This document shows, piece after piece, positions 28,301 to 49,665 of a DNA stretch of 51,882 bases; the first letter of the stretch is position 1, and each line of letters starts with the position of its first letter. The notes under the pieces were generated by a model. It had not been told where the DNA came from and did no database searches. It worked only from the letters and a program-made list of their open reading frames with translations. The stretch comes from a virus (lineage: Duplodnaviria; Heunggongvirae; Uroviricota; Caudoviricetes), in the IMG/VR virus record IMGVR_UViG_3300047393_000041, positions 64,001-115,882 of that record; one strand, given 5' to 3'. Both the position numbers and the translations under genes were made by a program.

Positions 28301-30739
28301 TTAAAGATTGTCTAACCAGCCTCCTGGTTGTTTAGTATTGTAGTTTGTAAAGTTAGTTAGATTATCTAAGTTCTGCAAACCTTTTTGCTCTTGTCTTAAT
28401 CCGTTCTTAGCCATAGGAAACTCTGTTACCTTCTTTCCTTTGAACTTATAATTCTTTCCTGGTTTCATTAGTTTCGTATCTCCTGTATCAGATATACCAA
28501 GTACATCATAAGGAACTCCTTGCATTGTAATATCATTACTTCCTATTTCTGTTATCTCTCCTGGATGATCCCATTGTCCTCTATCATCTTTAATGACTCC
28601 TCCTTGTTTAAGTTGAGGAGACTCATTATTATTAATTTGAGAAGCAGCTCCGATAGTACCTACAGCTCCAGTAACAGCTGGAACATAGTTCATCATATAT
28701 CTAAACTTATTTCTATCATTTATTAAGTTAAAAAATTCAGGATCAACTTTTGATTTACCAGATATTCCTTTATCTATTATTTCATCAGCTCTTTCTGGTG
28801 TTAAATTTTCTCCAGGTTTTAAACCATGCTCATATCTTATTTCTGAAAGTCTTGCATTTATTTCTGTTGGATCTAATAAATAATCTGAAGTTTTTTCATA
28901 ACTACCACTATCTAATCTAGGTTTAAAATCTTTTAAATTAAATGGGGATTGTAACACATCTTCATATCCTGTAATAAAAGAATTACCATTCGTAAGACCA
29001 TGATTTCCTTCATGTATTGCTGTTGATGTAATCATGTCAGGATTTATATATTTATCAACTAAGTTTTGTCTTTTAGAAAGATTTTTATAAGGATCAAGAT
29101 ACCAACCTGAAACTCCATAGTTACCTTGATGTACTCTAGGGTTTCCATCTACAAAGTTATCAAGTTTATTTAAATTTGATTCAAATTCACTTCTATAATT
29201 TTTATTTTCTATATTTTTTAATAGTTGTTCTTCATTATATGACTTTGGACCATATCTACTAGAGGCTTCTGTTATTTTTTCTTTTGTTATTGGATGATTA
29301 TACCAATTATCCATCCACTGATTAGCTTTATCTAAACTTTTTTGTGCCTCAATATGATGTAATGGATTTATGATTTTAGGAAGTTTTTGTATAGAATTAT
29401 CAACTGCTTCTAATCTATTAAAAGTTTTATCAGTAAATATATTATTTTTTAAAAATTGTTTTGTTTTACGTCCAATACTACTTGCATTAGATAATATAGG
29501 TTGTTCTAATTTTGGAGCAATGCGTTCAGATATATCTCCTAACTTATTTCCTATATACTTTTCAGCTGAATGATAACCAGGAATTATATTAAGAGGATTA
29601 ATGAGATTATTAATAAACTGTGTATTTGATTTTGCTCCTATACCTTCTATTCCTCCTGTTAATAATGGAACACCTATACTTGTAACATAAGGCATATATG
29701 AATCTTCTTGTTGTGCTCTTAATGGAGCAGAACCTAAATCAGAAGCCATGTTACCAATCATCACTCCTGGATTCAACCATTCATCAACAAAATTATTTGG
29801 TTCATCAGGAAACATTCTAAACTTATCTCCTGTAGCTTGTGTTTCATCTGCAAGTTGTTGTCTCCAATTATCTTTTGTAAAAGATTTCTTTTGAGAAGCA
29901 GCACTTTTATTTAGTCTATCTTTTCTATCTTGTACAATAGCTTTATCTTTAGCTAGTTGGTTTGCTTTAACTTGATCTTTATATTCTTTAGTATCAAACC
30001 ATCTTCTAGAATCTTCAGATTGAGCTTCTTTATTTATAGATTGCTGTAGTGGTGTATTTGCTTTTTGATCTTTAGTAAATTTTTTAAAATCAAATTTAGA
30101 AGTCTTACTTCCATCTTGACTAATAGTCTTAGGTTTCCAATCTAATCCTTGTTGGTAGTATTGCATTTCTTTACCATTCTGTGCAGAAGCATCTGTAACA
30201 TCAGTTTGGTTTCTACGTGGCCCTTTACTAGGAGATCCATGTCTAGCATACATATGTCCTACAGCTCCTGGCATTACTCCTCCCATTTGAAATTCTTTCT
30301 GAGGAAACATTATATTTTCTCCTTTCTCAACTGCTGGATGTCTAGTTTCATTTTCCCATTTATCAGCTTCTTGCCATGTTTTAAATGGACCACCTAAATG
30401 TTCACCTGTTTTTCTAAATTCTCCCATTGGGTCATTTAATGGTTTACCATATTTAAAACTAGGAATTAAATAAGATGGTTCTCCATCTTCTCCACCTATA
30501 GACATAGCTCTTTCACTGCTAGGATCAGAATATGGAATTCTATATTCTTTTGGTAGTTTATCACTAGTTGGTTGTAAGAACTTAAGTTTACCTCCAGTTT
30601 GAAACTGTCCTCCCCATGCAGGAGAACTATTTCTACCTACATTGCTATATCCATCTCCTTGAAATCCTTCAGGAGCATGTGTTTGATAATCATTATAATT
30701 ATCATCTTTACCGAAATTGTCTAACCATCCTTTAGCCAT
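28301..30739 (-). CDS. Virion cargo protein with an internal HExxH zincin-like domain
   Basis: 812 aa. TAIHEGNHGLT at 29000-29014, later EINARLSEIR; GG motifs; GWLDN at both termini. Confidence 0.55.
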   Translation of the reverse strand: MAKGWLDNFGKDDNYNDYQTHAPEGFQGDGYSNVGRNSSPAWGGQFQTGGKLKFLQPTSDKLPKEYRIPYSDPSSERAMSIGGEDGEPSYLIPSFKYGKPLNDPMGEFRKTGEHLGGPFKTWQEADKWENETRHPAVEKGENIMFPQKEFQMGGVMPGAVGHMYARHGSPSKGPRRNQTDVTDASAQNGKEMQYYQQGLDWKPKTISQDGSKTSKFDFKKFTKDQKANTPLQQSINKEAQSEDSRRWFDTKEYKDQVKANQLAKDKAIVQDRKDRLNKSAASQKKSFTKDNWRQQLADETQATGDKFRMFPDEPNNFVDEWLNPGVMIGNMASDLGSAPLRAQQEDSYMPYVTSIGVPLLTGGIEGIGAKSNTQFINNLINPLNIIPGYHSAEKYIGNKLGDISERIAPKLEQPILSNASSIGRKTKQFLKNNIFTDKTFNRLEAVDNSIQKLPKIINPLHHIEAQKSLDKANQWMDNWYNHPITKEKITEASSRYGPKSYNEEQLLKNIENKNYRSEFESNLNKLDNFVDGNPRVHQGNYGVSGWYLDPYKNLSKRQNLVDKYINPDMITSTAIHEGNHGLTNGNSFITGYEDVLQSPFNLKDFKPRLDSGSYEKTSDYLLDPTEINARLSEIRYEHGLKPGENLTPERADEIIDKGISGKSKVDPEFFNLINDRNKFRYMMNYVPAVTGAVGTIGAASQINNNESPQLKQGGVIKDDRGQWDHPGEITEIGSNDITMQGVPYDVLGISDTGDTKLMKPGKNYKFKGKKVTEFPMAKNGLRQEQKGLQNLDNLTNFTNYNTKQPGGWLDNL

Positions 30740-31605
30740 TACTTATATGATATTTGTGCAGGAGTTAATATGAATTGGCTCACTAGGTGAACGTTTGATT
30801 GATTGTCGAGTATATGTCTCACTTTTAATTCTTTTGCTCTTAGAGGAGCTTTTTTGAAACTACGTGTATCATAATTCATATTCTCTTGGTTGATCACTTT
30901 ATCAATAGAAAGACTCTGACATCCAGTGTTAAACAATGGAATTTGAGAAGATTTTTGAAGAGCCCAGAATGTATTGTACTGATAGAAGTTATCACTCTTG
31001 GTATATAGAATTGTTTTACTATCTGTATTGAATATTGGGTATTGCATATACGCATGCATGTTGTTTAATGGTTTTGCCACTAAGTTTAATACACCAGAAC
31101 TCTGTTGTCCATTATATAGAACAGCTTTGTTAAACCATTTATCATTTGTTTCTATTCTTGTGTTATCATTAAACACACCATCTCGTATAGGAATATATTC
31201 ATATGCTTTTGTATAATCTTGTACATTCTGAAGAATCTCATCTTGATATTGATATGCAAAAGGATACTCGATAATGTATGGTTTTATATTTCCATAATAA
31301 GAATTGTATAATTCAATATTTGTTAAGTGTCTCCATATACATCCTGTTATAGTTTGTGTTAATTTGATATTATAATATTCGTCTCTAGTAATATCATGTA
31401 ATGATATAGTCTTTTCAGATTTACAATCTCCTGTAGATTTTAATGTAACCATAGTTACATTATCGTTTACAGTATAACTTATTCCTAATATAAGAGTTTT
31501 TTTAGAAACACCTTCTGCTATCACATTCCCAAACTGATCAAAGATTGAGAATGGTCCAGCAGTAGGTCCTACTTGTGTTAACTTTATTGTTATTACTTTT
31601 GACAT
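30739..31605 (-). CDS. C-terminal part of the muzzle/tail stabilisation protein, fused to N-terminal module A
   Basis: First ~70 aa match the N-termini of 40420, 41099 and 43097. The remainder (IWRHLTN...YYGNIKPYIIEYPF...LKVRHILDN) resembles the muzzle C-terminus (from memory). Confidence 0.6.
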   Translation of the reverse strand: MSKVITIKLTQVGPTAGPFSIFDQFGNVIAEGVSKKTLILGISYTVNDNVTMVTLKSTGDCKSEKTISLHDITRDEYYNIKLTQTITGCIWRHLTNIELYNSYYGNIKPYIIEYPFAYQYQDEILQNVQDYTKAYEYIPIRDGVFNDNTRIETNDKWFNKAVLYNGQQSSGVLNLVAKPLNNMHAYMQYPIFNTDSKTILYTKSDNFYQYNTFWALQKSSQIPLFNTGCQSLSIDKVINQENMNYDTRSFKKAPLRAKELKVRHILDNQSNVHLVSQFILTPAQISYK

Positions 31606-31614
31606 ATTAGTTTA

Positions 31615-34600
31615 TTAACAAGGTCCATTATTAATTAATGTTACTTCAGGAGGTGTAACTACACTTCCACTTCGTGCACAGAATGTTTGAGTTGAAGGTC
31701 CTCCACCAGAGTTACCAATATTTACAGTTTGGGTAACTCCTGAACAATCAGTATAACTCACTGTTACAACTCCCACTGTTGTTTTACTTATTGTATATGA
31801 GAAACAAGCTATTGTTGTAGTTGTTGTTGTTGTTGCAGGATTACAGTTAACTATTTCAGTTATTACACCATCTACAACATTAAATATATTTCCACTAGAA
31901 AGTGATTCACTTGTAAAATACCAACCATTAGATACAGTTGAACAATCTGTAGATTCACCATTGTATACAGTTTCACCAATATTCAAACTTTCGACTTGAA
32001 TAATAATACTATTTATAGATATTGTAATAGGCATAACACTTTTAATATAAGTTATGGCAGAACATGCATCTAATTGACTTCCTGTAGAAATTACTGTTGA
32101 AGGAGGAGATATTATATTGTATCCTGTAGCAAAACTAGTTGTTGTTAAATTTGTTGGTCTCACGCAAGGTTCAATTACAACTACACCAGTTCCTGCTAAT
32201 ATACAATCTGTTAATGTAACTTGTCCTGCAAGTGCACAATCAATTACATGAGATTCTCCATCTAATCTACAATCTAAAATTATAGTGGTGGTAGTACTTG
32301 TAGTTGGTGGTGTAGGAACTAATGTTCCAGCAACAAAATCAAAATCATCACAACATCCATTTACTCCTGAATAGAAGAAGTTATTTTCAGCTATGTACCA
32401 GTTAGGAATATAACTATGAAAGCTTATCCAAGTTTTAGTGTTCATGTTAAATGAAAGAGTCCAAGATTTATTACAAAAATAATCTGAATCTTTTAAATCA
32501 ACAACTGTGGTTAATATTGAATCACCAACTAATTCTTCTATGTAAAATTCCTTAGTTGTAGAATTATATTTAACATTATTAGTTAGCGGAATATAATCAA
32601 GTTTAGTAATAATTACTCTATCAAATTTACTATCATACACTGCATGTAAACCTACACCATTAAAATGATTATCAGTATCAACTGTTGGAAAATATCTTAA
32701 TATTTCAAATGCTAAATGGTCTGTGAAGAATCTATTCATTCCAGAACCAAATGCAGATAAGTCTTGAGCTTGTGTACCTGCAATGAGAAATACTTGTCCT
32801 CTTTTAGCATCAATTGTTATTTGTCCATTTGGAATCTTCAATAACATTTTATTTTGACTTCCTACATATCCAAGATCTGTTTCAGCAAAATCTATTGGAG
32901 GAGCTCCTTTAAATAACATTGGATTACCAACATAAGCTGCTTGCGGATTACTTGTATCAATGGTAAGTAAGTTATTGTACATTAATGTCTTATTCTCAAA
33001 TCTAGCAAGTATAGCTCTATTTTGAATACCATCTAATGATATTAAGTTTCCATAGTTTTGAGGAAAATCAAAATATGAAACTGCTCTATATGTTAACCAA
33101 CTGTTCACTCTATTATCAGCATCTGTATTCTGTGTATCAGAATAGATTGCTCTAAATGGATAATGTGTATAGCAAGCTTTTCCATCCCAGTCAGGAGGAA
33201 GATGTGTAAATGTATTTTCTTTATTTTGTTTAGAGAATGTTACATTATATGTATATGTATTATCATTAGCTATACTAACAAAATCTTCCTGTAACCAATC
33301 ATCAGGAATACCTGTTGATACATGTGGCCAGAAATCACCTTCTCTATTATTAAATGCTTGTCTAAGATCTGTATTATAAGAACTCTCACAATAGAAGTTA
33401 GGAACACCATATGCAAATAAATAAAAATATCCATCATAGAATGTTCTTTGAGATCCTGCATTAGGAGGAGGATATAAAGTTGGATCATTAGGACAATCAA
33501 ATTCATGGGCTTTATATGATATAATATTAGAAAGTAATCCTGATCCATTATTTGCATAATCTGATAATATAGATCTAGCAGAATGCCAGTATTTTGGATA
33601 AGCTATATTACCAATCTCATCATAAAATACATCACTATCATCTGGAGCATTAACTCTATTATCAATAAAGAATGGAAGTTTAGTTTTAAATGCAAATCTA
33701 CTTATAAATGTATCTCCGCCAAATATTGTAGAGCTTCCTGTAGTTTTAGTATTTTTTTGAAATCCTGTATCAATAGTAACATAAGAATATATTTGTCCCC
33801 ATTGATTAACAAAAGTATTTTTCAATGATGCGTAATATGAAACAACACTAATAGCTTGTTCGTTAGCAGGTGTTGCACAAGCACTGCTGTCACCTATAGT
33901 AAATCTGGATACATCAGTTACTCCTAACGCAGCCATGTTGACACTAGAACTAGGGAAAGGTAATGCTGTTTTTGATTCATCTGTTTTTAAATAAACAGAA
34001 GATTCTCTTTGATAATTATTTATATTAAAATCATCACCTACATTTTGTACTCCAGGAATTAAGTATCTAGATAGATCTATATATCGCTGTTTGATACCAA
34101 TATTATTAGGTATAGATGTATTATAATCATAACTAGCTGTAGAGTTAAATGATTGTGCATAGTTTCTTCTTGTTATACCATTTATATATATTTGTAGATA
34201 TGCTTGATATGTTGTAAACATAGCAGTAGCATTAAATTGACTTGTAATAGCTCCTAATCTACTAGAACTATCTAATGCATCTTCTTGTGCTTCTTTTGAA
34301 AGTAATCTATATTTAGCATTACTTCTGACTTGTACAAAATGCGCAGATCCTTTACCAAACATTACATTCTCCAGTTTAAGAGTATCTCCTAAAAATGGTT
34401 GACCAAATGATGTTTCAGGTGAATTAAATATTTGTCTATAACTATTATTAAATTGAGGCAAAGGACTTTCTACTCCACATGCATCAACTCTTACGGGATC
34501 TCTTTCATCAATTCCAGTATCATCACCACAATATTCTATACATTCAGGTTTAGGTGAACCTGGTTCAGTGTAAACAATATATTCAGTATATCCACTATCC

Positions 34601-36819
34601 CAGTTATTTGAACCTTGTAAATACACTTGTGTGAGTGCACCTTGAGTTCTATCTGTAAATTGAGCTCGCCATCCTTCACATGGATCAAAAAATCCTGGAC
34701 AATCACGATATAAATACCATACATCATAATTAGAATATGATATACATCCTACATTAGATGATAACATTACAGGTCCAGTGTTAGTTTGTTTTATTTGATT
34801 AAATGGTCCATTACCTAAGAATGTAGGTTTGTTTATTGAACACCAATCAAATACACCTAAACTCTCAAAGTTATGAGTAGCTAATTTATTAGTATTAGGA
34901 TCTATATATTGAATAGCTGTATATGGAGGTTTTCCTACTGGAAATTCATTAAATTTAAATATATTAATTTCAAAAGGTTGAGATTCTTTTGCCCAAGCAT
35001 TATTGGTTGTATTTAAAAAAGGATCTGCATTTAAATCATTATATGGATAGTTAGGAAAATAAAAAGATTGTTCTTCTCTTTTATATTTATTTACATTACG
35101 AAGAATTCCTTTACCTACAATAGATTTATTTGTTGCTCTATCTCCTCTTAGTATTTTAAATCCTACTATAGCAGCTTTTTGTTCATCTGTAAGAGACGAA
35201 CTTCGAATTAAAGTATTTACTTGAGTAATATCTATTTTTACTCCTATAGGAAATACATTATTATTTTGAAAAGATAATCCTGTAAGAGGATCATAACCTA
35301 TAACTGGTTTTGTTATAGGAGATACTAATACATCTGGAAATTTATGATGTCTAATCTTTTGTCCAGCAAGATCTCCCCATACATTAGTATTGCATGGATA
35401 TTCTTCTGTAGATTCCCAATATGCAAATTTACCATAGTTGTAAGCAGTGGCATTACCAATGTTAGTTGTTGCATCTACAGGAGATGTATTAATTACAGAA
35501 GCAGTGTTGTAAATTTCCCAATAAGGAGCACTTGTTCCTTCACCAATGAAATCTTGATTTGTATTAGGAACACTAACTAAATCACTACTTATTGCTTCTC
35601 TACTTGGTATATGAAAACCATCTGTTTGTTTTCCATTTCTAAGTAGGAATGCAATTTCAAAAGCATACACTTCATCACGAAGATAACCTCTTAAGTTAGT
35701 TGCGTTTAATTCATCTGAATAGTTTTCAGTTGGTGGTAATTTATATGTTTCCCAAAGTAAAGTTATACCTGTTGCTATCTCTTGATAATTAATTCTATCA
35801 ATAGATACTAAACCATCCCATATAAGAACATCTTGTGCTGTAGTTAAATCTTCAGCTATATCATAATATGGAAACTTTTCAAATATATCATTAATAGATA
35901 ATCTTATGGCAGTAACATCTTGTCCTGTATATGTAACTTGTTTAGTTACATTATCAATAAAATATGTACCAACTAATTCTACAGAACTAACTGCATTTAT
36001 TGTTTTAATAACTGCTAAGTTAAAATATGTATATTCTCCTGTTGTATCTAAATTAGAAACATCAACAACAATTGACTTACCTACATTATAATTATAATTT
36101 ACCGTTGTAATACTAATATCTGCAATTGGTGTAGGGTTTGTAATAGAATAATATGATGTATATGGATTACCAGAAGCATCTGCATATTGAACAGCAAATT
36201 GATATGTACCAGCAATTAATGCTCCTCCAGTTGTAATGTCTACAACTGAAAGATCTGGAATATTAAAATTAGGTTGTATTTTTAATTGATTACAATCTAC
36301 TTCTGTAGTGTATGTAGGATTGCAAAGATCTGAGCCAGGAGTTAATGTATAAGGAATATTTTCAATATCTAAATATCTTCTTGGATTATATCCATCTGTC
36401 CAATATATTTCAGTTTTACAATTAGCTATCTTATGTACAACTTTATGTATTGGATTATCAATATTAAAATTAAGACATGCTGAATTAATTAATGTATGAT
36501 ATATACAATCATTATTATCCATATAACCTATCTCACATGAACCATCATTAGGATTAGTAAGAAAGAATATATGTTTACTTTTTTCGTTGATAAAATGCTC
36601 TCCTATTAATACATAGTTTTTTGGAAAAGATAAACAAAGTTCATTTCCTTGTTCATTCTGATAATTAACAGATGATGAATCAAAGTTTTCTAAAGCAGCA
36701 TTTAAAGCGTAAGTCAATGTACCTGGTTTAATTTGGTTCAAAGTTTGATCCATATTTAAACCAATAGATGCATTATTATATTCTGCCTTGATATTTCCTT
36801 GTGGTTGTTCTTCAGCCAT
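31615..36819 (-). CDS. Muzzle / tail stabilisation protein (P22 gp10-like), N-terminal main part
   Basis: 1734 aa. GLNMD...YALNA N-terminus, YLRDEVYAFEI, IRHHKFPD, WTLSFNMNTKTWISFHSYIP; syntenic after the ring gene. The last ~250 aa are accessory modules. Confidence 0.75.
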   Translation of the reverse strand: MAEEQPQGNIKAEYNNASIGLNMDQTLNQIKPGTLTYALNAALENFDSSSVNYQNEQGNELCLSFPKNYVLIGEHFINEKSKHIFFLTNPNDGSCEIGYMDNNDCIYHTLINSACLNFNIDNPIHKVVHKIANCKTEIYWTDGYNPRRYLDIENIPYTLTPGSDLCNPTYTTEVDCNQLKIQPNFNIPDLSVVDITTGGALIAGTYQFAVQYADASGNPYTSYYSITNPTPIADISITTVNYNYNVGKSIVVDVSNLDTTGEYTYFNLAVIKTINAVSSVELVGTYFIDNVTKQVTYTGQDVTAIRLSINDIFEKFPYYDIAEDLTTAQDVLIWDGLVSIDRINYQEIATGITLLWETYKLPPTENYSDELNATNLRGYLRDEVYAFEIAFLLRNGKQTDGFHIPSREAISSDLVSVPNTNQDFIGEGTSAPYWEIYNTASVINTSPVDATTNIGNATAYNYGKFAYWESTEEYPCNTNVWGDLAGQKIRHHKFPDVLVSPITKPVIGYDPLTGLSFQNNNVFPIGVKIDITQVNTLIRSSSLTDEQKAAIVGFKILRGDRATNKSIVGKGILRNVNKYKREEQSFYFPNYPYNDLNADPFLNTTNNAWAKESQPFEINIFKFNEFPVGKPPYTAIQYIDPNTNKLATHNFESLGVFDWCSINKPTFLGNGPFNQIKQTNTGPVMLSSNVGCISYSNYDVWYLYRDCPGFFDPCEGWRAQFTDRTQGALTQVYLQGSNNWDSGYTEYIVYTEPGSPKPECIEYCGDDTGIDERDPVRVDACGVESPLPQFNNSYRQIFNSPETSFGQPFLGDTLKLENVMFGKGSAHFVQVRSNAKYRLLSKEAQEDALDSSSRLGAITSQFNATAMFTTYQAYLQIYINGITRRNYAQSFNSTASYDYNTSIPNNIGIKQRYIDLSRYLIPGVQNVGDDFNINNYQRESSVYLKTDESKTALPFPSSSVNMAALGVTDVSRFTIGDSSACATPANEQAISVVSYYASLKNTFVNQWGQIYSYVTIDTGFQKNTKTTGSSTIFGGDTFISRFAFKTKLPFFIDNRVNAPDDSDVFYDEIGNIAYPKYWHSARSILSDYANNGSGLLSNIISYKAHEFDCPNDPTLYPPPNAGSQRTFYDGYFYLFAYGVPNFYCESSYNTDLRQAFNNREGDFWPHVSTGIPDDWLQEDFVSIANDNTYTYNVTFSKQNKENTFTHLPPDWDGKACYTHYPFRAIYSDTQNTDADNRVNSWLTYRAVSYFDFPQNYGNLISLDGIQNRAILARFENKTLMYNNLLTIDTSNPQAAYVGNPMLFKGAPPIDFAETDLGYVGSQNKMLLKIPNGQITIDAKRGQVFLIAGTQAQDLSAFGSGMNRFFTDHLAFEILRYFPTVDTDNHFNGVGLHAVYDSKFDRVIITKLDYIPLTNNVKYNSTTKEFYIEELVGDSILTTVVDLKDSDYFCNKSWTLSFNMNTKTWISFHSYIPNWYIAENNFFYSGVNGCCDDFDFVAGTLVPTPPTTSTTTTIILDCRLDGESHVIDCALAGQVTLTDCILAGTGVVVIEPCVRPTNLTTTSFATGYNIISPPSTVISTGSQLDACSAITYIKSVMPITISINSIIIQVESLNIGETVYNGESTDCSTVSNGWYFTSESLSSGNIFNVVDGVITEIVNCNPATTTTTTTIACFSYTISKTTVGVVTVSYTDCSGVTQTVNIGNSGGGPSTQTFCARSGSVVTPPEVTLINNGPC

Positions 36820-36827
36820 GATGTATA

Positions 36828-37796
36828 TTAATTATTTCTACGTCTTCCATATCTACTAGTAGGAAGTTCATACATATTAAATCTATTCAAATCATTTTTA
36901 ATCCTTTGTTGTTTTTCCCAAGGAGTTTGTTTTTTGATTTCAATACTAGCCATAATAAAAGCTTCTTCATATGCTTGTTTATGATATAATAACTTTTGTT
37001 GTAACTGATTAAAAGTTTCATCATTAGTTTGATTAGTAAGCATTTCAAATACTTTAAACTTAAGGAATGCTTCTACATATTCTCTTATACGATAATTATC
37101 AGGAATCATTTGATTTCCTATTTCATCATACTCTGTAGCATAAAATATTAAATGTACTACACCTTTTCTAAAGTTAGTTACAAACTTGTTATCTCGTATA
37201 TCAAATGAATCAATACTTGCAGATCCAGGTGTAAAGTTACGATCAGGTAAAGGTTGGGAATAAGTTTCCCAATTATCTGTATATCCTACTCCACAGTTAT
37301 GTCTTGCAGATATATTTCCAGGCTTAAGTAAATAACTATGATTAAATCCTCTAGTCACACTATTGTTTGTTTTATACACAGCTTGTACTAAAACAGGCAT
37401 ACATGTACCATCACATTGTGGAGTTTGACAACCAACATTAGTACAAGGAGTTCCACCAATAGTTAATGGAGCTATTTGTATAGTAGTTGCTGTAGCAGCT
37501 TGTGAATAAAATGAGTTAGCTGATTGATAAGGATAAGCTGCTACTTCTGTAGTCATCCAAGCTTCTCTAACAGCATAAAAGTTATCAGGAAGTCTTGCTT
37601 GAAAATCTTCAACAAAAAGAACTTCATCAGTAATTACATAAGTAGTTCTTCCTAACTTTTTTAAAGCTTTGTCTAAATAAGTAGGGAATAACAAATCATC
37701 TACAGCACCTGTATCGAAATAACTTTTAAGTTCTTCCTTAACGGTTGAGTAGATAGGTTCTGGGCTTATAAAAGCATATTTATAATAGTAGCTCAT
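36828..37796 (-). CDS. Tail ring/adaptor (tubular) protein
   Basis: 322 aa; FQARLPDNFYAVREA and QMIPDNYRIREYVEAFLK; lies between the IHF-like gene and the muzzle, as in crAss-like genomes. Confidence 0.6.
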   Translation of the reverse strand: MSYYYKYAFISPEPIYSTVKEELKSYFDTGAVDDLLFPTYLDKALKKLGRTTYVITDEVLFVEDFQARLPDNFYAVREAWMTTEVAAYPYQSANSFYSQAATATTIQIAPLTIGGTPCTNVGCQTPQCDGTCMPVLVQAVYKTNNSVTRGFNHSYLLKPGNISARHNCGVGYTDNWETYSQPLPDRNFTPGSASIDSFDIRDNKFVTNFRKGVVHLIFYATEYDEIGNQMIPDNYRIREYVEAFLKFKVFEMLTNQTNDETFNQLQQKLLYHKQAYEEAFIMASIEIKKQTPWEKQQRIKNDLNRFNMYELPTSRYGRRRNN

Positions 37797-40419: not shown

Positions 40420-41061
40420 TTATGGAATATATGTTATATCTAATCCACCAGATCCACCACCACCATCAGCACCTGGAGCTGCTGGTACTGTACTAGAAGC
40501 TCTCACTCTAATTTGATAAGTATATGTTCCTGCAGTTAAACTCATTGTATTCGTTGAGTATTGAGTTCCTGTAGATGATGATTTACTTGCAATAAAGTTA
40601 GTACCATTTATTGATATAGTAGTTTCAAGGGTAGTCCCATGATAAGTGGTTATCGTAGCATAAGCTTTTACTAAATAAGATCCAGTACCTGTAACAAGAA
40701 TAGTTCCTCCAGTACAGATTTTATCATCTATCATAGGGTCAGGTGTATTGGAATAACTAGAATATGCTCCTACTGAAAATCCGCATACCGTAGATGTAAT
40801 TGCATTCACTACAGTAGTAGTTGTAGTAGTTGTTGGTGTTACACCACCTAATGTTATATCAATATAATTTACACAGGCCCCTGTTGATTTAACTCTAATT
40901 ATTGTTGCACCATCAGGTACTACTGTAGAAGTGTAACCTGCAACTAATGCTGCCTTACTGACTCCTGTAGCAAATGCTGCTGAATATGAATCAATATTAG
41001 TGTAAAGATTGAATGGTCCAGAATCTGCACCTGCTGTTGTCAATGTTATTAATGCTGTCAT
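40420..41061 (-). CDS. Modular virion decoration/fibre protein (module A + poly-Thr + beta domain)
   Basis: 213 aa; GPFNLY...VPDGATIIRVKSTGACVNYIDI, then T7, then an Ig-like-looking head. Confidence 0.6.
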   Translation of the reverse strand: MTALITLTTAGADSGPFNLYTNIDSYSAAFATGVSKAALVAGYTSTVVPDGATIIRVKSTGACVNYIDITLGGVTPTTTTTTTVVNAITSTVCGFSVGAYSSYSNTPDPMIDDKICTGGTILVTGTGSYLVKAYATITTYHGTTLETTISINGTNFIASKSSSTGTQYSTNTMSLTAGTYTYQIRVRASSTVPAAPGADGGGGSGGLDITYIP

Positions 41062-41098: not shown

Positions 41099-41851
41099 TT
41101 AACATCCACTGCCTACAGTTACTATATTTGCAATTACGCCATCAGTTAATTCATATATTTGAATACCTGATCTTACTGCATCATAACTAATTGGTGTGAT
41201 GAGAGCTGGAGTTGTATAAAGTGTTACACCAAGTCCTAATGTAGGAGAATTTGAATATGCAGTAATTACTCCTGATGGAGTCCATGTTATTGCACCATTA
41301 CATCCAACTGTTCCTGCTGTTAGATTAAATGTATAATATGTAATTGGTGCAGGTGTAGTTCTAGTAGTAGTAGTTGTTGGTGTTACAGTTGTTATTGTTG
41401 TTGTAGTTGTTGGTGTTGAAGTAGTCGTCGTTGTGGTTGTTATTTCTTCTGCACTCCCTTGAATTGCACAATCTAAAACTATAACAGTAGTAGTTGTGGT
41501 TGTTGTTGGTATTACAGTTGTTGTTGTTGTTGTTGTTATTTCATCTGCGATTCCTTCAATTGTACAATCTAAAGCTACAGTAGTAGTAGTAGTTGTAGTT
41601 ACTTCATATGCATTTCCGTCAAGTTCACACAATGCAAGATATATATCAGTATAGTTTGAGCAAATCTCGTTTACAGATTGAATCCTAACAATTGTTGTAC
41701 CGTTAGGAATTTGATCTGTTGGATATCCAGTAGTCAATATTAATTTACTAATGTTAGTTGCAAATGGTACTGAATAACCTGTTACATCTGAATATAAATT
41801 AAAAGGACCTGTGTCTACTCCTGCTACTGTTAATAATATTATTCCTGTCAT
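41099..41851 (-). CDS. Modular decoration protein (module A + CxphixG/poly-Thr repeats + module D)
   Basis: 250 aa with multiple T5-T7 tracts and three CxphixG motifs. Confidence 0.6.
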   Translation of the reverse strand: MTGIILLTVAGVDTGPFNLYSDVTGYSVPFATNISKLILTTGYPTDQIPNGTTIVRIQSVNEICSNYTDIYLALCELDGNAYEVTTTTTTTVALDCTIEGIADEITTTTTTTVIPTTTTTTTVIVLDCAIQGSAEEITTTTTTTSTPTTTTTITTVTPTTTTTRTTPAPITYYTFNLTAGTVGCNGAITWTPSGVITAYSNSPTLGLGVTLYTTPALITPISYDAVRSGIQIYELTDGVIANIVTVGSGC

Positions 41852-41870: not shown

Positions 41871-43037
41871 TTAAATATAAGAACACGATCCACCTATCTT
41901 TGTGGTAATACCTAATGTATTTCCATTTAAATTCCAGCAAGATGCAATAGATCTAACTGAATTTACAGTAGCAGCTACAGTAAGTTCTTTGTTTTGCCAT
42001 AATGATATACCAGGAATTAATGTTTTTGAACTTGAATATAACACTATTGTACCAGAAGCATTAAACACTACAGAATTAGAATTACAACTAATTGTACCAT
42101 ATGTTAAACTATGACTAAACCATACTACAGGTTTTAAAACTACTGATGCTTTTCCAGCTAATGTACAAATTTTTGCTTTAGTTGTAGTGGTAGTTGTTAA
42201 TTTTTTGGTAGTAGTTGTTGTTGTGGTTAATTTCTTAGTGGTAGTCGTAGTTGTTGTTAACTTTTTAGTAGTGGTGGTAGTAGTAGTTAACTTTTTAGTA
42301 GTGGTGGTAGTGGTTAATAGTTTTTTAGTTGTTGTACTTGTAGTAGATGCTGGATAAACAACTGTCATATTTCCAGCAAATGTACAAGCAGGATCTATAA
42401 TAGGATCAACTAAAACTCTAACTGAGTAACCATATTGACCAGCCTTTAGAGGTAAATAAGTTCTCCAAACCCAATCATTATTTGCCTCGATGTGAAAAGT
42501 TTCTATACCCTCAGCAGTTACTGTAGAACTCCACAACATTAATTCTTTACCAAGATCTGTAAATTGTGGACCACTAAGGTATGAAATTATAGCTCCAGCT
42601 GGAAGAGCTGTAAATCCACTACTGTTAGTAGCAGTGTTATTTGGAGCATCCCAATGAGCAATTCCTGTCTCTCTAAGTTTATCACCTAAATTTCCAGTTT
42701 CATTAGTTACATACTCGAGTAACTTAAAAAATTCATCACTCGATGGGATATGATATCCAACTGGTGCAAGTTTTTTACGTAATTTTGTATCTGTTTTTGA
42801 TGCTTCATTCCATATTCCTGCAACTGCATACCAGTTGTATAATTTACCATAAATTGCTCCATTTGCTGGATCATTTTTATAATAACACCAAGCTCCAGTT
42901 GTTAAATTTTTCCAATATGTTGGATTTGTTACTTGAGGAATTATTGTACCATCAGTATATTTAGACACATCTAAATTTTTAGCTGACCATTGTTGTGTAC
43001 CTATCTGTACTGTGGGTAATAATAATGCTGTTGCCAT
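41871..43037 (-). CDS. Fibrobacter succinogenes major paralogous (FISUMP) domain protein with Thr-rich stalk
   Basis: QIGTQQWSAKNLDV...AWCYY.NDPANGAIYGKLYNWYAV...LAPVGYHIPS...GFTALPAG is the Fib_succ_major signature. Confidence 0.85.
   Translation of the reverse strand: MATALLLPTVQIGTQQWSAKNLDVSKYTDGTIIPQVTNPTYWKNLTTGAWCYYKNDPANGAIYGKLYNWYAVAGIWNEASKTDTKLRKKLAPVGYHIPSSDEFFKLLEYVTNETGNLGDKLRETGIAHWDAPNNTATNSSGFTALPAGAIISYLSGPQFTDLGKELMLWSSTVTAEGIETFHIEANNDWVWRTYLPLKAGQYGYSVRVLVDPIIDPACTFAGNMTVVYPASTTSTTTKKLLTTTTTTKKLTTTTTTTKKLTTTTTTTKKLTTTTTTTKKLTTTTTTKAKICTLAGKASVVLKPVVWFSHSLTYGTISCNSNSVVFNASGTIVLYSSSKTLIPGISLWQNKELTVAATVNSVRSIASCWNLNGNTLGITTKIGGSCSYI
42181..42340 (-). repeat. 30-nt degenerate tandem repeat encoding (KKLTTTTTTT)n, ~5 units
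   Basis: ttaa-y-ttt-y-tt recurs at 42197, 42227, 42257 and 42287; third codon positions vary. Confidence 0.9.
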
Positions 43038-43096: not shown

Positions 43097-44194
43097 TTAA
43101 CATGATCTCATAATTTGCCATCCAGCCAAACCTCCAAAACCAGTTATTCTAACTGTTATATTAGGATTTACTGCATAATCATCACTAGTATATTTCCACC
43201 ACATTAATTGTTGAAAGTTAATCTTAAATCCACTGTATGCACCTATACCATCAATATTTTTTGCTAACAATAATGGAGATCCAGTTTCTGCAGTATATTC
43301 AGTTTGACGTGAGTATATTGGTAAACTATTAAAATCTCCTGACAATGAATATGCTCCAGTAAAACCATTCCATATATAGTGAGGATATGTTGACAAACCA
43401 TATTGTATATTATTACTAATATTATTAATATCATTATAACTAAAATATCCATCACTATAATAACGACAACTTAAATCGCCTGAATTATCAAATGGGCCTG
43501 AGTTAAAAACTGTAAAAATTGGATCTTGCTGACGAAGACTAAGATTTGGATTAAATATATTGTCGTTCCCATAAAAACTTCCTGATGTTGCTTTTTTGAT
43601 ACCATCATGAAGTATTTCAAATTTAATTGGAGCAGCATCTTGACGTAAGTTAAGTGTAACTACTCCTCCTTCAGGAGATAACTCAATAGTATATTCACGT
43701 TTTCCTGCTCCTTGTTTTAATATATAACAATCTAATGGTTGAAGATTTGTTGATATTGGTCCACTAGTTGTAGTTGTAGTTGTTGTATTAGGACATGTGC
43801 CTTGTATAACAAATGGTCCACATCCACTCCACGTATCACTTCTTGCACATTTAATATTAAAATATTGACCAGCACTTACAAAAGTAGACAGTATTTCATC
43901 ATTGCAACCAATCCAACGTATATCACAATCAGTTGCAGCTGGTCCATATCTAACATCATGACATGTAAGTTTAATAATTGGTGCAGGAATATTTATAATA
44001 CTATTACAGTCTCCTATAGAAATAATTTTAATATTATTTACTGTACTTGGAAGTGCTGTTGTAAGATAACCTATAATTAATTGATCTTTAGTCACTCCTG
44101 ATGCAAAAGGAATTGTGTAGTTATCAGCATCTGAATATAAATCAAATGGGCCTGTATTAGCTCCTGCTGATGTTAATTTAATAATTGATGTCAT
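43097..44194 (-). CDS. Modular decoration protein (module A + module C + poly-Thr + unique head)
   Basis: 365 aa; GANTGPFDLYSD...SIGDCNSIINI, then CDIRWIGC...CARS...GTC, T7, and a ~220-aa head. Confidence 0.6.
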   Translation of the reverse strand: MTSIIKLTSAGANTGPFDLYSDADNYTIPFASGVTKDQLIIGYLTTALPSTVNNIKIISIGDCNSIINIPAPIIKLTCHDVRYGPAATDCDIRWIGCNDEILSTFVSAGQYFNIKCARSDTWSGCGPFVIQGTCPNTTTTTTTSGPISTNLQPLDCYILKQGAGKREYTIELSPEGGVVTLNLRQDAAPIKFEILHDGIKKATSGSFYGNDNIFNPNLSLRQQDPIFTVFNSGPFDNSGDLSCRYYSDGYFSYNDINNISNNIQYGLSTYPHYIWNGFTGAYSLSGDFNSLPIYSRQTEYTAETGSPLLLAKNIDGIGAYSGFKINFQQLMWWKYTSDDYAVNPNITVRITGFGGLAGWQIMRSC

Positions 44195-44402: not shown

Positions 44403-46238
44403 TTAATTTGATATATTTATACCGTAATTCTTCCATCCATCACTCATAGAATTCATCTGCATAGCTACAAGTATCCAGGTCCCTGAAGTTGTAGAAAAAC
44501 TAGCTGTAGAAGGTATAAATGTTGTTGTAACAACATCTTCTCCTGTTAGGCTAGAAACTGTAGACATATAGAAACCTCTAATCAATCCAGCTCTAATAAG
44601 AAACTCTCTAGTAAAGGTTCCTTCTATAAAGTTAGAGTCAAGATCATACTTTCCAATCTGAGTAGCTCCTGACAAGGAGTTGATTGAGTTTGTATATACA
44701 CCTATAGTTCCAGTTGAATTTGCATTAATTTTTCCAAAACGAGTCTTTAATTTTAAGTAATCTCCATCTGTAAAGAAATTTGGGTCAATATATACACTAG
44801 CTGCCAAAGTTAGAGATGTACTACCACCACTTTCATTATATGTAGTTGTTCTTGCTGCTGTCTTATTATATATGGTACTGTCTACACTTCCATCTGCTTT
44901 TAAGAATTGTGAAACTAACCCTCCTGATTTCTTAAATGATGTGCCTAAAATTGAACCGTTTACTTGCAATTTGTCTACTCCATTATTAACTGTACCACCT
45001 AATAATAAGTTTCCATAAATAGCGGTATGAGTAATTGAGCTATTTCCTAACACTGTTGTATTACTTCCTAATCCTGTAGAATCATAACCGATTACTATTT
45101 GATTTGATTGTGTATCTGCAAGTGGAGATGTTCTAAACCCTATCATTACACTATTATATAAACTAGTGGCAATAGTTGATTTATTTGCTAACCATCTTCC
45201 TGAACTTTGTCCAAGTGCAACATTGCTTTGTCCAAGTACATTATTTCCTAATGCTGCTGCTCCAACTCCTGTATTTTGAATTCCAGTTGTATTAGCACTC
45301 AGTGATTGATTTCCAACTGCAGTATTCTGCCATCCAGTTGTATTATAAAACATTGATTGATGTCCAATTGCTACATTAGAATATCCACCTGTATTATAAT
45401 ATAATGAAGTATATCCTACTGCTAAATTAGAATATCCTATTGTATTATAGTATAATGTATATTCTCCAAGTGCAACATTGTAATATCCAGTAGTAGTATT
45501 AACTAATGATCTATATCCTATTGCAAAGTTATCACGTCCTGTTGTATTTCTACTCCCAGACGTAACTCCATTAAAATAATTACCAATAATATTAGAAATT
45601 CTAATTTCATTATTAACCTCTCCTGAACTATTTAAGAAAGTAGTTGTAGCAATTGAAGTTCCAATAGTTTTGATACTTAAAACTACTGTTCCATTAAAAT
45701 CAGTTGTAGGCACTATACTCAAACTAGTCACATCAGTTGCTCTTGGACCTGTAGCTCCTGTAGCAGTTACTCCACTTTTCACAGTACCTCCATAATTGAT
45801 AGTAATGCTTCCTGCTGTTCTTCCAGTAATTGTATAGGTAATCTGATAATATGTATCAATAACTGCTGCTAATGTAGAAATTAAAGGTCCTACACTTCCT
45901 GCTATGTGTGTGTAACCTGTTGCAAAATTAGTACCTGTCCAGTTAGTACCTGTAGCAGTTGTTGTAAGTTCTTCACCTAATGGTGCTGTATCACTTTCTA
46001 CTGTTCCTTTAAAAGATTTTAATCCTGTAATAGTTTGAACACCTGCGATATAAACAATCGAAGGATCTGATGTGCATAATTTTGTTTCTATTTTTTGTAA
46101 AGCTACTGAAAGAGTATCTTTATTTTGGATTCCTGTACATGTTAAATTTGGTCCAGCATAGCAAACAGAAGTTGAAGGTGTACATGGTTGACAATCTTCA
46201 CACCCACAGTTATTATCAATAGTTAAATATGGCCACAT
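44403..46238 (-). CDS. Tail fibre/adhesin with Cys-rich N-terminus and YadA-head-like repeats
   Basis: 611 aa; ~14-aa repeats (N[VT]A[LVI]G..SL..NTTG); fibre-like QFLKADGSVDS motif. Confidence 0.75.
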   Translation of the reverse strand: MWPYLTIDNNCGCEDCQPCTPSTSVCYAGPNLTCTGIQNKDTLSVALQKIETKLCTSDPSIVYIAGVQTITGLKSFKGTVESDTAPLGEELTTTATGTNWTGTNFATGYTHIAGSVGPLISTLAAVIDTYYQITYTITGRTAGSITINYGGTVKSGVTATGATGPRATDVTSLSIVPTTDFNGTVVLSIKTIGTSIATTTFLNSSGEVNNEIRISNIIGNYFNGVTSGSRNTTGRDNFAIGYRSLVNTTTGYYNVALGEYTLYYNTIGYSNLAVGYTSLYYNTGGYSNVAIGHQSMFYNTTGWQNTAVGNQSLSANTTGIQNTGVGAAALGNNVLGQSNVALGQSSGRWLANKSTIATSLYNSVMIGFRTSPLADTQSNQIVIGYDSTGLGSNTTVLGNSSITHTAIYGNLLLGGTVNNGVDKLQVNGSILGTSFKKSGGLVSQFLKADGSVDSTIYNKTAARTTTYNESGGSTSLTLAASVYIDPNFFTDGDYLKLKTRFGKINANSTGTIGVYTNSINSLSGATQIGKYDLDSNFIEGTFTREFLIRAGLIRGFYMSTVSSLTGEDVVTTTFIPSTASFSTTSGTWILVAMQMNSMSDGWKNYGINISN

Positions 46239-46286
46239 AGATTTGAAGTGTATAAATTATATAATAAATTTTAAATATAAGTTGTA

Positions 46287-47027
46287 TTAAGGTCTATATT
46301 GAATATAATAATAACCTGAACCTACTGGAGGTGTAAGAACTGGTGTTCCAGCTACTCCATTACAAACATATATTTTTTGCCATGTTCCATATCCTGCACC
46401 ATCAATATCAAATTTACCAGTTAATGAACCATAATAATTTTCTACAACATAAGGAACCATTCTATTATAATAGTTTGTAGTTATTCCAGATGTAGCAGAT
46501 AAATATGTATTGATTAAACTATCAAGTTCATCATATCTTACATAGTTTGTATCAAGATATAAAGCTAATGCACATAATGTATCTATTGTAGCTTGAAGCA
46601 TAGCATGTGTTCCTGAAGAAGGTGTTATAGAAGGTGTTGCATCTGTAAGACATTTTACATCATAATCAGCTTCAATTACATCTAGCTTACCATCAATCAC
46701 TACTATATCGGCAACAATACTATCTATTTGTAACTGAAGGCTACAAGCAGCTTGTATAAGAGCTTTTGATATATCTACAATAGTTATATCTCCAGAGATA
46801 GGAAGAAATGAACTCACAAGAGTACATATAGTTATACCAGTAAGATCTATCTTTATACCTGTTCCATTTAATGCAGATACAAGATATGTAGTTATAGCTT
46901 GTTCTACATGTGATAAAGAATCACCTGTTTGAATTCCTAAAGTAGGAATATCTATTCCTGTATATTTAACACATTGATCACTTGTAGTTTCAATGCATCC
47001 ATTATAACAATTTTGGCAATTAGACAT
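46287..47027 (-). CDS. Cys-rich short fibre protein, tail-collar-like C-terminus
   Basis: 246 aa; CQNCYNGC..SDQCVKYTG..LGIQTGDSL; coiled coil; WQKIYVCNG..GTP. Confidence 0.5.
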   Translation of the reverse strand: MSNCQNCYNGCIETTSDQCVKYTGIDIPTLGIQTGDSLSHVEQAITTYLVSALNGTGIKIDLTGITICTLVSSFLPISGDITIVDISKALIQAACSLQLQIDSIVADIVVIDGKLDVIEADYDVKCLTDATPSITPSSGTHAMLQATIDTLCALALYLDTNYVRYDELDSLINTYLSATSGITTNYYNRMVPYVVENYYGSLTGKFDIDGAGYGTWQKIYVCNGVAGTPVLTPPVGSGYYYIQYRP

Positions 47028-47039: not shown

Positions 47040-47717
47040 TTATAGTGTTATTGTTGTTGTTGTGGTTGTAGTAGCTGGACAAGATCCTTCTGTAAAAATA
47101 ACTTGAGGATTATTGTAAGTTACTGATAATGGATTTAATTCTGTAGTAATATCACTTACACTTCCGCTTCCTCCAAATCCCATCCACCAGAAATACCATC
47201 TTTCTGGATAATATATATTATTGTAATTTAATGTTGCAGAAGCAGTAAAATCACTTTGTGTATCATATATATCTCCTTGATATGTAGGATAACCCTCTCC
47301 ATCTAATCCTGTAAAAGTAATAGTACCACTAGTCATAAATGATGCATCAAATGTACTGATGTTTACACAAATAGATAAAGGAAATAAAGCTACTGTAGTA
47401 GTAGTAGTTGTAGTTAACATTCCTTCAGGTGTAACTATAGGTTTAATATTGCAACCTAAAGTTAATAACTTAACTTTACTTGCAATTCTATTTATAGACA
47501 CATCACATATATAATTAGGATTATAATTCTTATATGTTAATATTCTTCTATACGCAATTAGTTGAATCATTATTCCAGCAGGAACAGACTGATTCAACAT
47601 AAATGTAATATTATTAAATAGACCATTAGCATAATACGCTAATTTACAATCTATCTCTTCAATCAAGTTAGGAATGTTTGCACATTCAGGGCAATTAGTT
47701 AGTCTAGGTGATAACAT
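47040..47717 (-). CDS. Putative tail-hub protein with appended poly-Thr-flanked domain
   Basis: 225 aa; helical N-half, then T7, a beta domain and T7; position matches crAss-like hub genes (inference). Confidence 0.4.
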   Translation of the reverse strand: MLSPRLTNCPECANIPNLIEEIDCKLAYYANGLFNNITFMLNQSVPAGIMIQLIAYRRILTYKNYNPNYICDVSINRIASKVKLLTLGCNIKPIVTPEGMLTTTTTTTVALFPLSICVNISTFDASFMTSGTITFTGLDGEGYPTYQGDIYDTQSDFTASATLNYNNIYYPERWYFWWMGFGGSGSVSDITTELNPLSVTYNNPQVIFTEGSCPATTTTTTTITL

Positions 47718-47726: not shown

Positions 47727-47822
47727 TTATTTATTTAACTTACCTGCACAAGTTGCGCATAGTCCATCTTTCAATTGACATCCACATCCCACATTAGCTC
47801 CGCATGAATTACATTGTGCCAT
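47727..47822 (-). CDS. 31-aa six-cysteine peptide
   Basis: Manual translation MAQCNSCGANVGCGCQLKDGLCATCAGKLNK; fills the intergenic gap (2 nt after one stop, 9 nt before the next start). Confidence 0.75.
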   Translation of the reverse strand: MAQCNSCGANVGCGCQLKDGLCATCAGKLNK

Positions 47823-47824
47823 GA

Positions 47825-48388: not shown

Positions 48389-48407
48389 GGTTTTATATTA
48401 AGAAGTT

Positions 48408-48445
48408 AATAAAAAGGGGAGAGAGTGTTTTACTCATCTCCCCTT
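48408..48445 (-). terminator. Intrinsic terminator after the 395-aa gene
   Basis: - strand AAGGGGAGA-T-GAGT-AAAAC-ACTC-TCTCCCCTT followed by TTTATT. Confidence 0.8.
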
Positions 48446-48477
48446 AGTATTAGGAATTTATTATTTTCTACTTATCC

Positions 48478-49665
48478 TTAAGGAATGTTAGTAGAAGTTG
48501 TTGTAGTTGTTGCAGGAGCAGCAGTACTAGTAGTTGTAGTTGTAATAACACAACCGTTGTTAGCATCAATTAAACCTAAAGCAGCTGCTAATACAGTTTC
48601 GATTGCAGCAGCAATACCACTAAACAAACCTCCTCCGATAGGAGTAGCAGCATTTGGAGCAGCGATGATCACTGTACTATCTTCTTGAATATAATCACCC
48701 CATTGGTAAGCAGACTTATCAAGTTCATTGAATTTAATATAGTAAGTATCATAAGTTACACCACCTGAAACATAAGTTTCAAAGTTTTCATTGTAACCAT
48801 TCATTCTATATAAATGTTTCAAGTAACCTGCTTGGTAGCTATAGAAGTTTTTCTCTAATTGAGCAATCTCTGCAGATTGACCTGTTGGATAAGAAGCACG
48901 TTGAGTAATAGCTGTAGTTGCAACAAGGTTACAAGCATCAGCAACAATAAAGTCAGCAGTAGTAGCTGGACCAGAATATACAAAAGTTCTAAAAGACATT
49001 CTGTCATATTCAAAAGGGAATGCAGCAACATCACATGGTTGACCATATTTTGTTAAAGGTTTTCCTGTAATACGTAAAATAGTTCCACCTACATTTTCAA
49101 ATGTATAGAATGTGTTAAAACTAATATTATCAGGATTGATACCAGGAGCTTGTGCAGTTAATTTAGCAATCAACTCATTGATTAATACATTAGGATCTGT
49201 ATCAGCACATGGATCACCACCACAATCACAACAAGGTGCTTGGATAGTTACTGAACGTGTGAATCCATTGAAATACAATGTATCAATATAAGAAGAATGT
49301 GCACGTAAAGTTAATGTTAATGTGTCTCCACATTGAGCAGTAAAGTTAGTTACATCAGTAATTTGGTTTGCTGCTGTTGGGCAACCTACCACTTTGTACC
49401 ATTCAGATACATTAGATCCTGTAGAAGAAATTCTATCAGATCTTTTAGATGCTTGAAGGTAAGTGTTTTGTCTACCTTGTGCAATGTAGAAATAAGGATT
49501 AGCAGTAGCAATATTAGTAGCATCTACAGCAACATATTTACTGCTAAAAATACCTACTTGACCTGCGGTAAGGTCTTGTGTTGAGATTGCTCCCATACCA
49601 GAGCTAGGAAGAGTAGTCTGTCCTACTGGAACCACAAATAATGTGGTTAATGAAAAATCAGCCAT
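48478..49665 (-). CDS. Probable auxiliary capsid protein (crAss-like conserved structural protein) with poly-Thr tail
   Basis: 395 aa; third gene after the capsid gene, followed by a strong terminator as expected for a high-copy protein. Confidence 0.5.
   Translation of the reverse strand: MADFSLTTLFVVPVGQTTLPSSGMGAISTQDLTAGQVGIFSSKYVAVDATNIATANPYFYIAQGRQNTYLQASKRSDRISSTGSNVSEWYKVVGCPTAANQITDVTNFTAQCGDTLTLTLRAHSSYIDTLYFNGFTRSVTIQAPCCDCGGDPCADTDPNVLINELIAKLTAQAPGINPDNISFNTFYTFENVGGTILRITGKPLTKYGQPCDVAAFPFEYDRMSFRTFVYSGPATTADFIVADACNLVATTAITQRASYPTGQSAEIAQLEKNFYSYQAGYLKHLYRMNGYNENFETYVSGGVTYDTYYIKFNELDKSAYQWGDYIQEDSTVIIAAPNAATPIGGGLFSGIAAAIETVLAAALGLIDANNGCVITTTTTSTAAPATTTTTSTNIP

Follow-up and report, generated by a model that had tools for sequence, protein, structure and literature searches.

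Shared modules, poly-threonine spacers and a split muzzle protein in the tail genes of an environmental crAss-like phage

The stretch of DNA analysed here, referred to as the window, comprises 51,882 nucleotides (positions 64,001 to 115,882) of the IMG/VR record IMGVR_UViG_3300047393_000041. The parent record is a complete 115,882-bp virus with direct terminal repeats, and the window is its final 51.9 kb. Several genes of the window, all on the minus strand like every gene of the region, encode proteins that share small modules and poly-threonine (poly-Thr) tracts. The open reading frame (ORF) 31615-36819 encodes a crassvirus muzzle protein (PF25731 crAss_MUZ, E 8e-36, 124 bits versus a cut-off of 27). 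Pfam matches identify ORFs 36828-37796 and 38284-39012 as tail ring proteins 1 and 2, while ORF 44403-46238 is tailspike-like (phrog_4636 tail spike, E 3e-23). Together these matches place the module-bearing genes among the tail and fibre genes of a crAss-like podophage, within its late structural block. Judged from the muzzle and ring protein matches, they would make up the tail-tip and fibre cassette of a phage of this type from the environment. Genes are named below by their first coordinate.

Modules and spacers in the tail and fibre genes

Module A is a domain of ~75 residues. The N-termini of ORFs 30739-31605, 40420-41061, 41099-41851 and 43097-44194 align with 15 invariant columns, and pairwise BLASTP E-values among the four range from 2e-5 to 6e-19. 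Across the 115,882-bp genome, a profile of the module finds these four copies and no others. A preliminary description of the window had placed module A at the N-terminus of these same four proteins, and the alignment, the BLASTP matches and the genome profile all agree with it. The module was modelled as a beta-sandwich that resembles several solved FN3 domains (VIA Z 5.0-5.4 over 66-70 residues). Its top fold matches also include a type 9 secretion C-terminal domain (CTD) of Flavobacterium (8gl8_D; Z 6.0, root-mean-square deviation [rmsd] 2.3 Å, 64 residues). A role as a type 9 sorting domain was rejected, since module A is N-terminal, secretion CTDs are C-terminal, and the module has no Pfam match at E <= 0.01, the type 9 CTD families included.

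Tracts of at least four Thr occur in exactly seven ORFs, namely the muzzle gene, 40420, 41099, 41871, 43097, 47040 and 48478, in line with the seven genes first reported. The tracts have a preferred length. Exactly seven consecutive Thr, here called a T7 tract (phage T7 is always named as such), account for 12 of the window's 19 tracts and for 363 of 849 among relatives. Often alongside the tracts lies module B, a short unit with a single cysteine. Its motif C.[LIFV][DEAQ]G has eight occurrences, all of them in the muzzle, 41099 or 41871, as had been noted before; shuffled sequences gave 0.48 +/- 0.69 occurrences with a maximum of 4, for a pattern that was fixed after the cases had been seen. 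In relatives, B has the consensus LDCxLxG(T/N)A..I and forms an 11-residue, one-cysteine unit. Among 1,029 unique proteins of relatives, the motif was 34-fold enriched within 25 amino acids (aa) of Thr tracts, with tandem units spaced 11 residues apart.

Two further modules are C and D. Strict module D is common to 41099 (residues 166-250) and 41871 (residues 302-385), with a BLASTP E-value of 1.4e-6 and a jackhmmer E-value of 1e-35. The muzzle had also been thought to carry a copy of D, but this was rejected (hhalign probability 0.6%). The supposed site holds a different conserved domain, D' (muzzle residues 1549-1662), which is present in 28 muzzle-size proteins and in four shorter ORFs resembling muzzle pieces. 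D-type domains are bracketed by cysteines, the first close to the start of the domain and the second right at its end. The C-terminus of the muzzle gives a strong match to module C, which has four conserved cysteines (E 8e-33 with a profile from relatives). The second reported copy, in 43097, is marginal: targeted scoring gave ~10 bits with the cysteines aligned, and neither jackhmmer in either direction nor database-scale searches retrieved it. Thus modules A and B, strict module D and the Thr tracts stand as originally described, module C of 43097 is marginal and module D of the muzzle is not supported by sequence.

Fold searches with the model of the muzzle C-terminal part were dominated by the propeller and gave no fold class for D' or C, and feature searches for these two domains returned just unnamed viral clusters below the trust level. 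Structure matches of module D were unnamed viral proteins, some with Fib_succ_major or Peptidase_S74 domains, and serve as leads only.

Each gene combines these parts differently. The 40420 protein is the simplest, consisting of module A (40834-41061), a T7 tract (40813-40833) and a 130-aa end module. In the 41099 protein, module A (41636-41851) is followed by three single B units among six Thr tracts (41357-41635) and by D (41102-41356); in the relative P0004, the same D lies directly behind A and its poly-Thr tract, without B. The 43097 protein carries module A (43985-44194), a Cys-rich C-like region (43793-43966), a T7 tract (43766-43786) and a 222-aa head domain (43100-43762). The 41871 protein (41871-43037) lacks A. 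Instead its residues 10-207 (42417-43010) form a full-length Fib_succ_major domain (PF09603, E 7.8e-31, 108 bits versus a cut-off of 33.9), followed by B, a series of decamers and another B (42135-42404), and by D (41883-42134). The decamers of sequence T6-7-KKL are encoded by five tandem 30-nt repeats (42180-42314). This Lys-containing spacer variant was seen in 41871 alone among the window genes.

A second type of anchor is found in the 47040 protein (47040-47717), where a conserved, Cys-containing N-terminal domain (N-domain) of ~100 aa (47415-47717) precedes a T7 tract (47394-47414), a 107-aa module (47073-47393) and a terminal T7 tract (47052-47072). A sequence search of the N-domain against solved structures gave no match, and its earlier label as a putative hub was not confirmed. 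The same holds for the auxiliary-capsid label of the 48478 protein (48478-49665), whose family matched nothing meaningful among solved structures by sequence. This conserved 395-aa structural-module protein has two short Thr tracts near its end (48496-48543) and no swappable module.

A muzzle protein in two pieces

The muzzle gene and the first of the A-genes are best considered together. The muzzle core (residues 1-1490; 32350-36819) contains propeller, Ig (immunoglobulin)-like and crass domains and ends with ...NNFFYSGVNGCC. Behind it lies a C-terminal extension (31618-32349) made up of a Thr/Pro/Ser tract, three B units (32185-32283) with cysteines at residues 1517, 1528 and 1539, D' (31834-32175), a T7 tract (31813-31833) and C (31618-31812). 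The adjacent gene 30739-31605 encodes a 288-aa protein, in which module A (residues 1-75; 31381-31605) is joined through a low-confidence linker to a jelly-roll domain (residues 92-285; 30751-31332).

An AlphaFold (AF2) model of the 288-aa protein (mean predicted local distance difference test [pLDDT] 77.6) has two parts, the A beta-sandwich and this second domain. The second domain is equivalent to residues 1242-1371 of the phicrAss001 muzzle protein gp44 (7qok_A; VIA Z 10.1, rmsd 2.6 Å, 129 residues; Foldseek E 5e-4), and more weakly resembles the C-terminal platform domains of phage T7-type nozzles. The reference structures for gp44 are PDB 7QOK/7QOL (Bayfield et al. 2023, PMC10172136), and its Pfam families are PF25731 and PF25729. 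In a model of the last 585 residues of the window muzzle, the alignment to gp44 stops at gp44 residue 1241 (Z 9.4; residues 1226-1481 to 7qok_A). The muzzle of the window is therefore split at the propeller/platform junction, and the 288-aa protein is the ring-joining (platform) domain of the muzzle. One of the four A-proteins is thus a core tail part rather than an accessory protein, a point that had been partly missed earlier, and module A is also joined by a peptide bond to a core component of the tail.

Homologues of the 288-aa protein support this arrangement, and more than 100 relatives keep the muzzle in one piece. Of 101 longer ones, ~97 have the full muzzle length (1,353-1,977 aa), and the C-termini of these unsplit muzzles match residues ~88-288 of the 288-aa protein with 50-81% identity. 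No module A or Thr tract was present at the propeller/platform junction of the 45 unsplit muzzles inspected, where just 5-15 residues separate ...NNFFYSG from (I/M)W(R/K)HLTN.... It follows that the window carries an insertion of ~330 codons at this point. The insertion reads, in order, Thr tract, three B units, D', T7 tract, C, stop codon, 9 nt, start codon, A and linker. This looks as if the 3' portion of a cassette gene had been joined to the 5' portion of its successor; the two together split the muzzle.

The platform protein is itself conserved, with a length of about 288 aa in 51 unique relatives, and module A is retained as a folded domain in all of them. The muzzle extension ranges from about 0 to >1000 aa among relatives, and one to four B units follow the first Thr tract in 55 of 60 split muzzles. 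Despite the strong structural match (Z 10.1), PF25729 crAss_MUZ_C hit none of the 42 members in an alignment of the 288-aa family at E <= 1. Against solved structures, the family gave only a chance-level hit by sequence, and the best match for the whole muzzle was a gingipain C-terminal region at E 0.63.

The two pieces of the window muzzle share with gp44 the PF25731 N-terminal region, the last part of the propeller up to residue 1241, the ring-joining domain (1242-1371) and the ring protein 1 and 2 genes alongside. Unlike gp44, which runs as a single polypeptide from the propeller through the C-terminal ring-joining domain, the window gene is divided at the equivalent of 1241/1242. Its first piece has gained a tethered string of 245 aa and its second piece has gained module A; the second piece also lacks any sequence match in Pfam, PF25729 included.

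A fibre dock next to the platform and a divided nozzle are known from other podophages. In phage T7 gp12, a fibre-dock domain immediately precedes the platform (PMC6702177). Pseudomonas podophage A1002 has a split nozzle composed of nozzle-base gp42 and nozzle-rope gp39, the latter consisting of an Ig-like domain, a fibre dock and platform-C (PMC13730344). As in A1002, the nozzle of the window phage is made of two polypeptides, and the piece that bears the platform has an N-terminal part with an Ig-like domain (a putative one in the window); in A1002 this part serves to attach fibres. However, the split point differs and A1002 gp39 also contributes propeller strands. A1002 belongs to an unrelated phage group and has neither Thr tethers nor a shared set of modules. 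By analogy, rather than as a result, module A of the platform protein would sit where other podophages attach their fibres.

Other parts of the muzzle also vary among relatives. A section of the core (34440-34971; residues ~616-793) had no nucleotide alignment to any of six relatives, while its flanks aligned at 71-91%, and represents a second hypervariable insert within the muzzle. Some unsplit relatives have a tract of seven or eight Thr at another internal site, at about residue 1067.

Exchange of modules among relatives

Module A is widespread. Searches of large protein collections yielded 444 homologues of 117-373 aa, and a Thr/Ser tract immediately followed the module in 118 of the best 120. 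Among 1.84 billion proteins, A was represented by 1,665 clusters. In the best 150 of these 1,665 representatives, which are 78-426 aa long in total, A starts at residue 1-10 in 148 and at residues 24 and 335 in the other two. Module A is 65-85% identical among homologues, whereas the tails behind it are unrelated. This is the pattern of anchor-type receptor-binding proteins (RBPs), with a conserved N-terminal domain and unrelated C-terminal parts, and it agrees with the original view of A as a conserved N-terminal domain preceding hypervariable tails. Some relatives (L014, L025, L051, L063, L076 and others) also encode minimal A-proteins of 72-104 aa, in which A and a Thr tract are joined by little or nothing more, as though cargo had gone missing or were yet to be acquired.

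A search of viral contigs with module A identified 95 related loci, of which 80 were analysed by cutting their Thr-tract proteins at the tracts and clustering the pieces. Segments of one and the same family turned up after A, after a second N-terminal module and after the 47040-type N-domain, as well as at the C-terminal end of muzzles. Five contexts were found for Fib_succ_major: N-terminally in the window, C-terminally after A, after the 47040 anchor or on a muzzle, and internally elsewhere. Module C is carried by nine muzzles and seven A-proteins, and the 43097 head domain is found on both A- and non-A proteins. Module D follows A in three proteins and also follows Fib_succ_major. The modules are homologous across genes, and relatives hold them in other combinations and on other host proteins. 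The preliminary description had proposed that modules are permuted in order and host gene. The window genome and more than 80 related loci agree with this.

Comparison with a close relative, the record G001, located the boundaries of exchange. The core genes of G001 and the window share 87-91% nucleotide identity. The 47040 protein and its G001 homologue are identical for 63 residues and 92% identical over ~97, after which they diverge completely at the Thr tract. At the nucleotide level, homology breaks off at 47427, which lies 13 nt ahead of the tract (47414-47394), and resumes where the gene ends; the G001 protein continues with a different string of 570 aa that ends in Fib_succ_major. In the 40420 gene, homology stops at 40814, within the tract 40833-40813, and returns at the stop codon. 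Lastly, 5.1 kb of the window (46252-41102), with genes 44403, 43097, 41871 and 41099, is missing from the corresponding place in G001, which has a fusion of A and Fib_succ_major instead. In such near-identical phages the exchange boundaries coincide with Thr-coding tracts and gene ends, and A-genes are gained or lost as a whole. The two junctions, at 47427 and 40814, fit the suggestion that breakpoints would be found in Thr codon tracts, and constitute two clear cases rather than a statistical survey.

Modular RBPs with a conserved N-terminal anchor and an exchangeable C-terminal domain are classical in tailed phages. Examples are the head-binding domain of the P22, Sf6 and HK620 tailspikes, the N-domains of gp17 in relatives of phage T7, and the Klebsiella and CBA120-type branched anchors. 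The proteins described here resemble these in their conserved N-domain, their hypervariable C-terminal parts, the exchange between relatives and the presence of several such proteins per genome. They differ in their junction, which is a poly-Thr spacer in fixed T7 units with an 11-residue one-Cys unit, and in their cargo, which is a string of small Cys-bracketed modules and not a trimeric spike. In addition, the modules are also found on the muzzle and on a second anchor (47040), and docking by A is putative.

In secreted modular glycoside hydrolases and in adhesins, domains are likewise joined by Ser/Thr/Pro-rich linkers, and phage virions can be decorated with Ig-like domains such as T4 Hoc. 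Like those linkers, the Thr tracts are low-complexity, hydroxy-amino-acid spacers between small, independently folding domains of a binding type. Unlike them, they occur in phage proteins that are made inside the cell, their length is quantised at seven, and they mark recombination boundaries.

A possible host-adhesion kit and its alternatives

We propose that these genes form a modular host-adhesion kit, in which fixed anchors, T7 spacers and exchangeable small modules recombine at repeats, and we give this a probability of roughly 60%. The anchors would be the FN3/Ig-like module A, the 47040 N-domain and the muzzle core itself. T7 units, often accompanied by B units, would act as spacers. 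The end modules would come from a large pool of small, Cys-bracketed, beta-rich domains (C and D), together with the 43097 head domain and Fib_succ_major, and may be domains for host-surface (probably glycan) binding or adhesion on flexible tethers. Module A would hold the small A-proteins on the tail near the junction of muzzle and barrel, which is necessarily the place of the A in the platform protein. Swaps would be driven by recombination between the repeated A-coding 5' ends and the Thr-coding tracts, and the split of the muzzle would be a by-product of such recombination that was later fixed. Cysteines may lock the parts together once they are released from the cell.

In this proposal, display of the A-proteins on the virion is a prediction, and so are the docking of A, the binding role of the end modules and the locking by disulfides. 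Several points weigh against it. By sequence, module A matches no solved or named family, whether in Pfam or in a profile search against solved structures, and its fold match is a generic one to FN3/Ig-like or similar domains (Z 5-6). In the platform protein, A might have been carried along by recombination without being a functional dock. Of 150 cargo regions, just two have a Pfam match (Ice_binding and Fib_succ_major), so that a binding function is assumed from position and analogy. In the monomer AF2 model the B region is disordered, with a pLDDT of ~30 compared to ~90 for D' and C. Modelling the 288-aa protein in complex with the A domain taken from the small proteins gave a score of 0.03, which is uninformative in either direction.

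Hints of disulfides are the single invariant cysteine of A, the one cysteine of each B unit and the disulfide-stabilised tails of phicrAss001 (PMC10172136). Next to the split lie muzzle Cys1489 and Cys1490 (32350-32355) and platform Cys89 (31339-31341). Cys1490 is kept in all 43 split muzzles. Across 47 unique loci, Cys1489 and Cys89 are both Cys in 25, both another residue in 22 and never discordant. This concordance reduces to only two independent changes on the tree (sign test p 0.5), so that the co-evolution of the two positions is not significant. A putative interchain disulfide between them is a lead, not evidence.

The Thr tracts might have a role of their own. Their strong preference for seven residues suggests a recognised unit, and they also cap proteins or ends without a swappable module, as in 48478 and at the end of 47040. 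Outside the window, the genome has at least one GT2 glycosyltransferase gene (G000:C1:58115-58390, E 2.3e-11), whose product is a candidate modifier of the tracts. The tracts could then be mucin-like stalks O-glycosylated by phage glycosyltransferases, with the sugar coat as the main role and the modules secondary. Such a coat would help to stabilise or shield the particle or let it adhere to mucus or exopolymer, and would not serve specific receptor recognition. It would not, however, require folded modules that are conserved and shuffled as units, and we regard it as unlikely to be the chief explanation. With the GT2 gene in the genome, O-glycosylated Thr stalks are nevertheless a live alternative, and one that is compatible with an adhesion kit. 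Module A, for its part, might not be a dock. Its generic fold match and the minimal A-proteins of some relatives would also suit an Ig-like domain for decoration or weak adhesion, as in T4 Hoc and other phage Ig-like domains, or a starter of folding or oligomerisation, and the platform protein could have received its A along with the inserted gene junction. The A-proteins would then attach by other means or not at all. This is rather improbable given that A is far more conserved than the part that follows it and almost always begins at residue 1, which is the pattern of phage anchors, and that all 51 unique platform proteins have kept it folded.

It is also conceivable that the small proteins made of A, a Thr tract and a further module act in or on the infected cell, for instance in superinfection exclusion or envelope modification, and share modules with the muzzle through recombination only. 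The inclusion of the secretion CTD 8gl8_D among the fold matches of A would suit this. We consider it very improbable all the same, as the position of A and its lack of a Pfam match speak against a secretion CTD. The A-genes lie within the late structural block, between the fibre-like and the ring/muzzle genes, in many relatives directly between the muzzle and platform genes, and one copy of A is fused to a core tail domain.

A more daring extension of the adhesion-kit proposal is that A and the B unit form a plug-and-socket pair, with a disulfide between their single invariant cysteines. It derives from the observation that the muzzle extension begins with B and the platform protein with A, both starting from the same structural point. 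If true, the A-B pairing and the Cys1489/Cys89 pair would bring the halves of the split muzzle back together, and the B units of 41099 and 41871 would let more A-proteins attach in chains or branches. The result would be a self-assembling, rapidly reprogrammable tail-tip array. We see this pairing, together with the re-joining and chain-attachment model, as a long shot.

In the literature searched, we found no description of fixed-length poly-Thr junctions, of the 11-residue B unit, of the same modules on a muzzle, two anchor types and stand-alone genes, or of a muzzle split by a cassette junction. Uncultured crAss-like phages of this kind are common in environmental metagenomes, where A alone defines 1,665 protein clusters. 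The kit gives a practical basis for predicting from sequence how host range changes, helps to find new small binding domains, and can guide the engineering of modular display on phage tails. With its unsplit relatives, whose platform identity reaches 81%, the split muzzle is a natural experiment in how a core tail protein tolerates cutting and decoration. The window adds a clean case, as it has both unsplit relatives and breakpoints against a close relative.

Among INPHARED phage records, neither of two queries, the 48478 protein and module A, found a match. Between the A-gene cassette and ring protein 2 lies 39016-40239, a 407-aa DNA-repair-exonuclease-like gene (phrog_704, E 3e-50), and relatives keep it at the same place within the structural block. 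The cassette is bordered by the tailspike-like gene 44403-46238 and the fibre-like gene 46287-47027 (both within 44403-47027). The fibre-like protein encoded by 46287-47027 has 246 aa, whereas three relatives at a greater distance have longer homologues of 352-373 aa. The additional C-terminal part of the longer homologues matches a solved tail fibre with a collar-like TPDLR and HxH region (9qgo_A, E 1.6e-3). The tailspike-like gene 44403-46238 has a tailspike-like paralogue at 376-1824, ~43 kb away, with which it shares 34% identity over 229 aa (E 1e-19).

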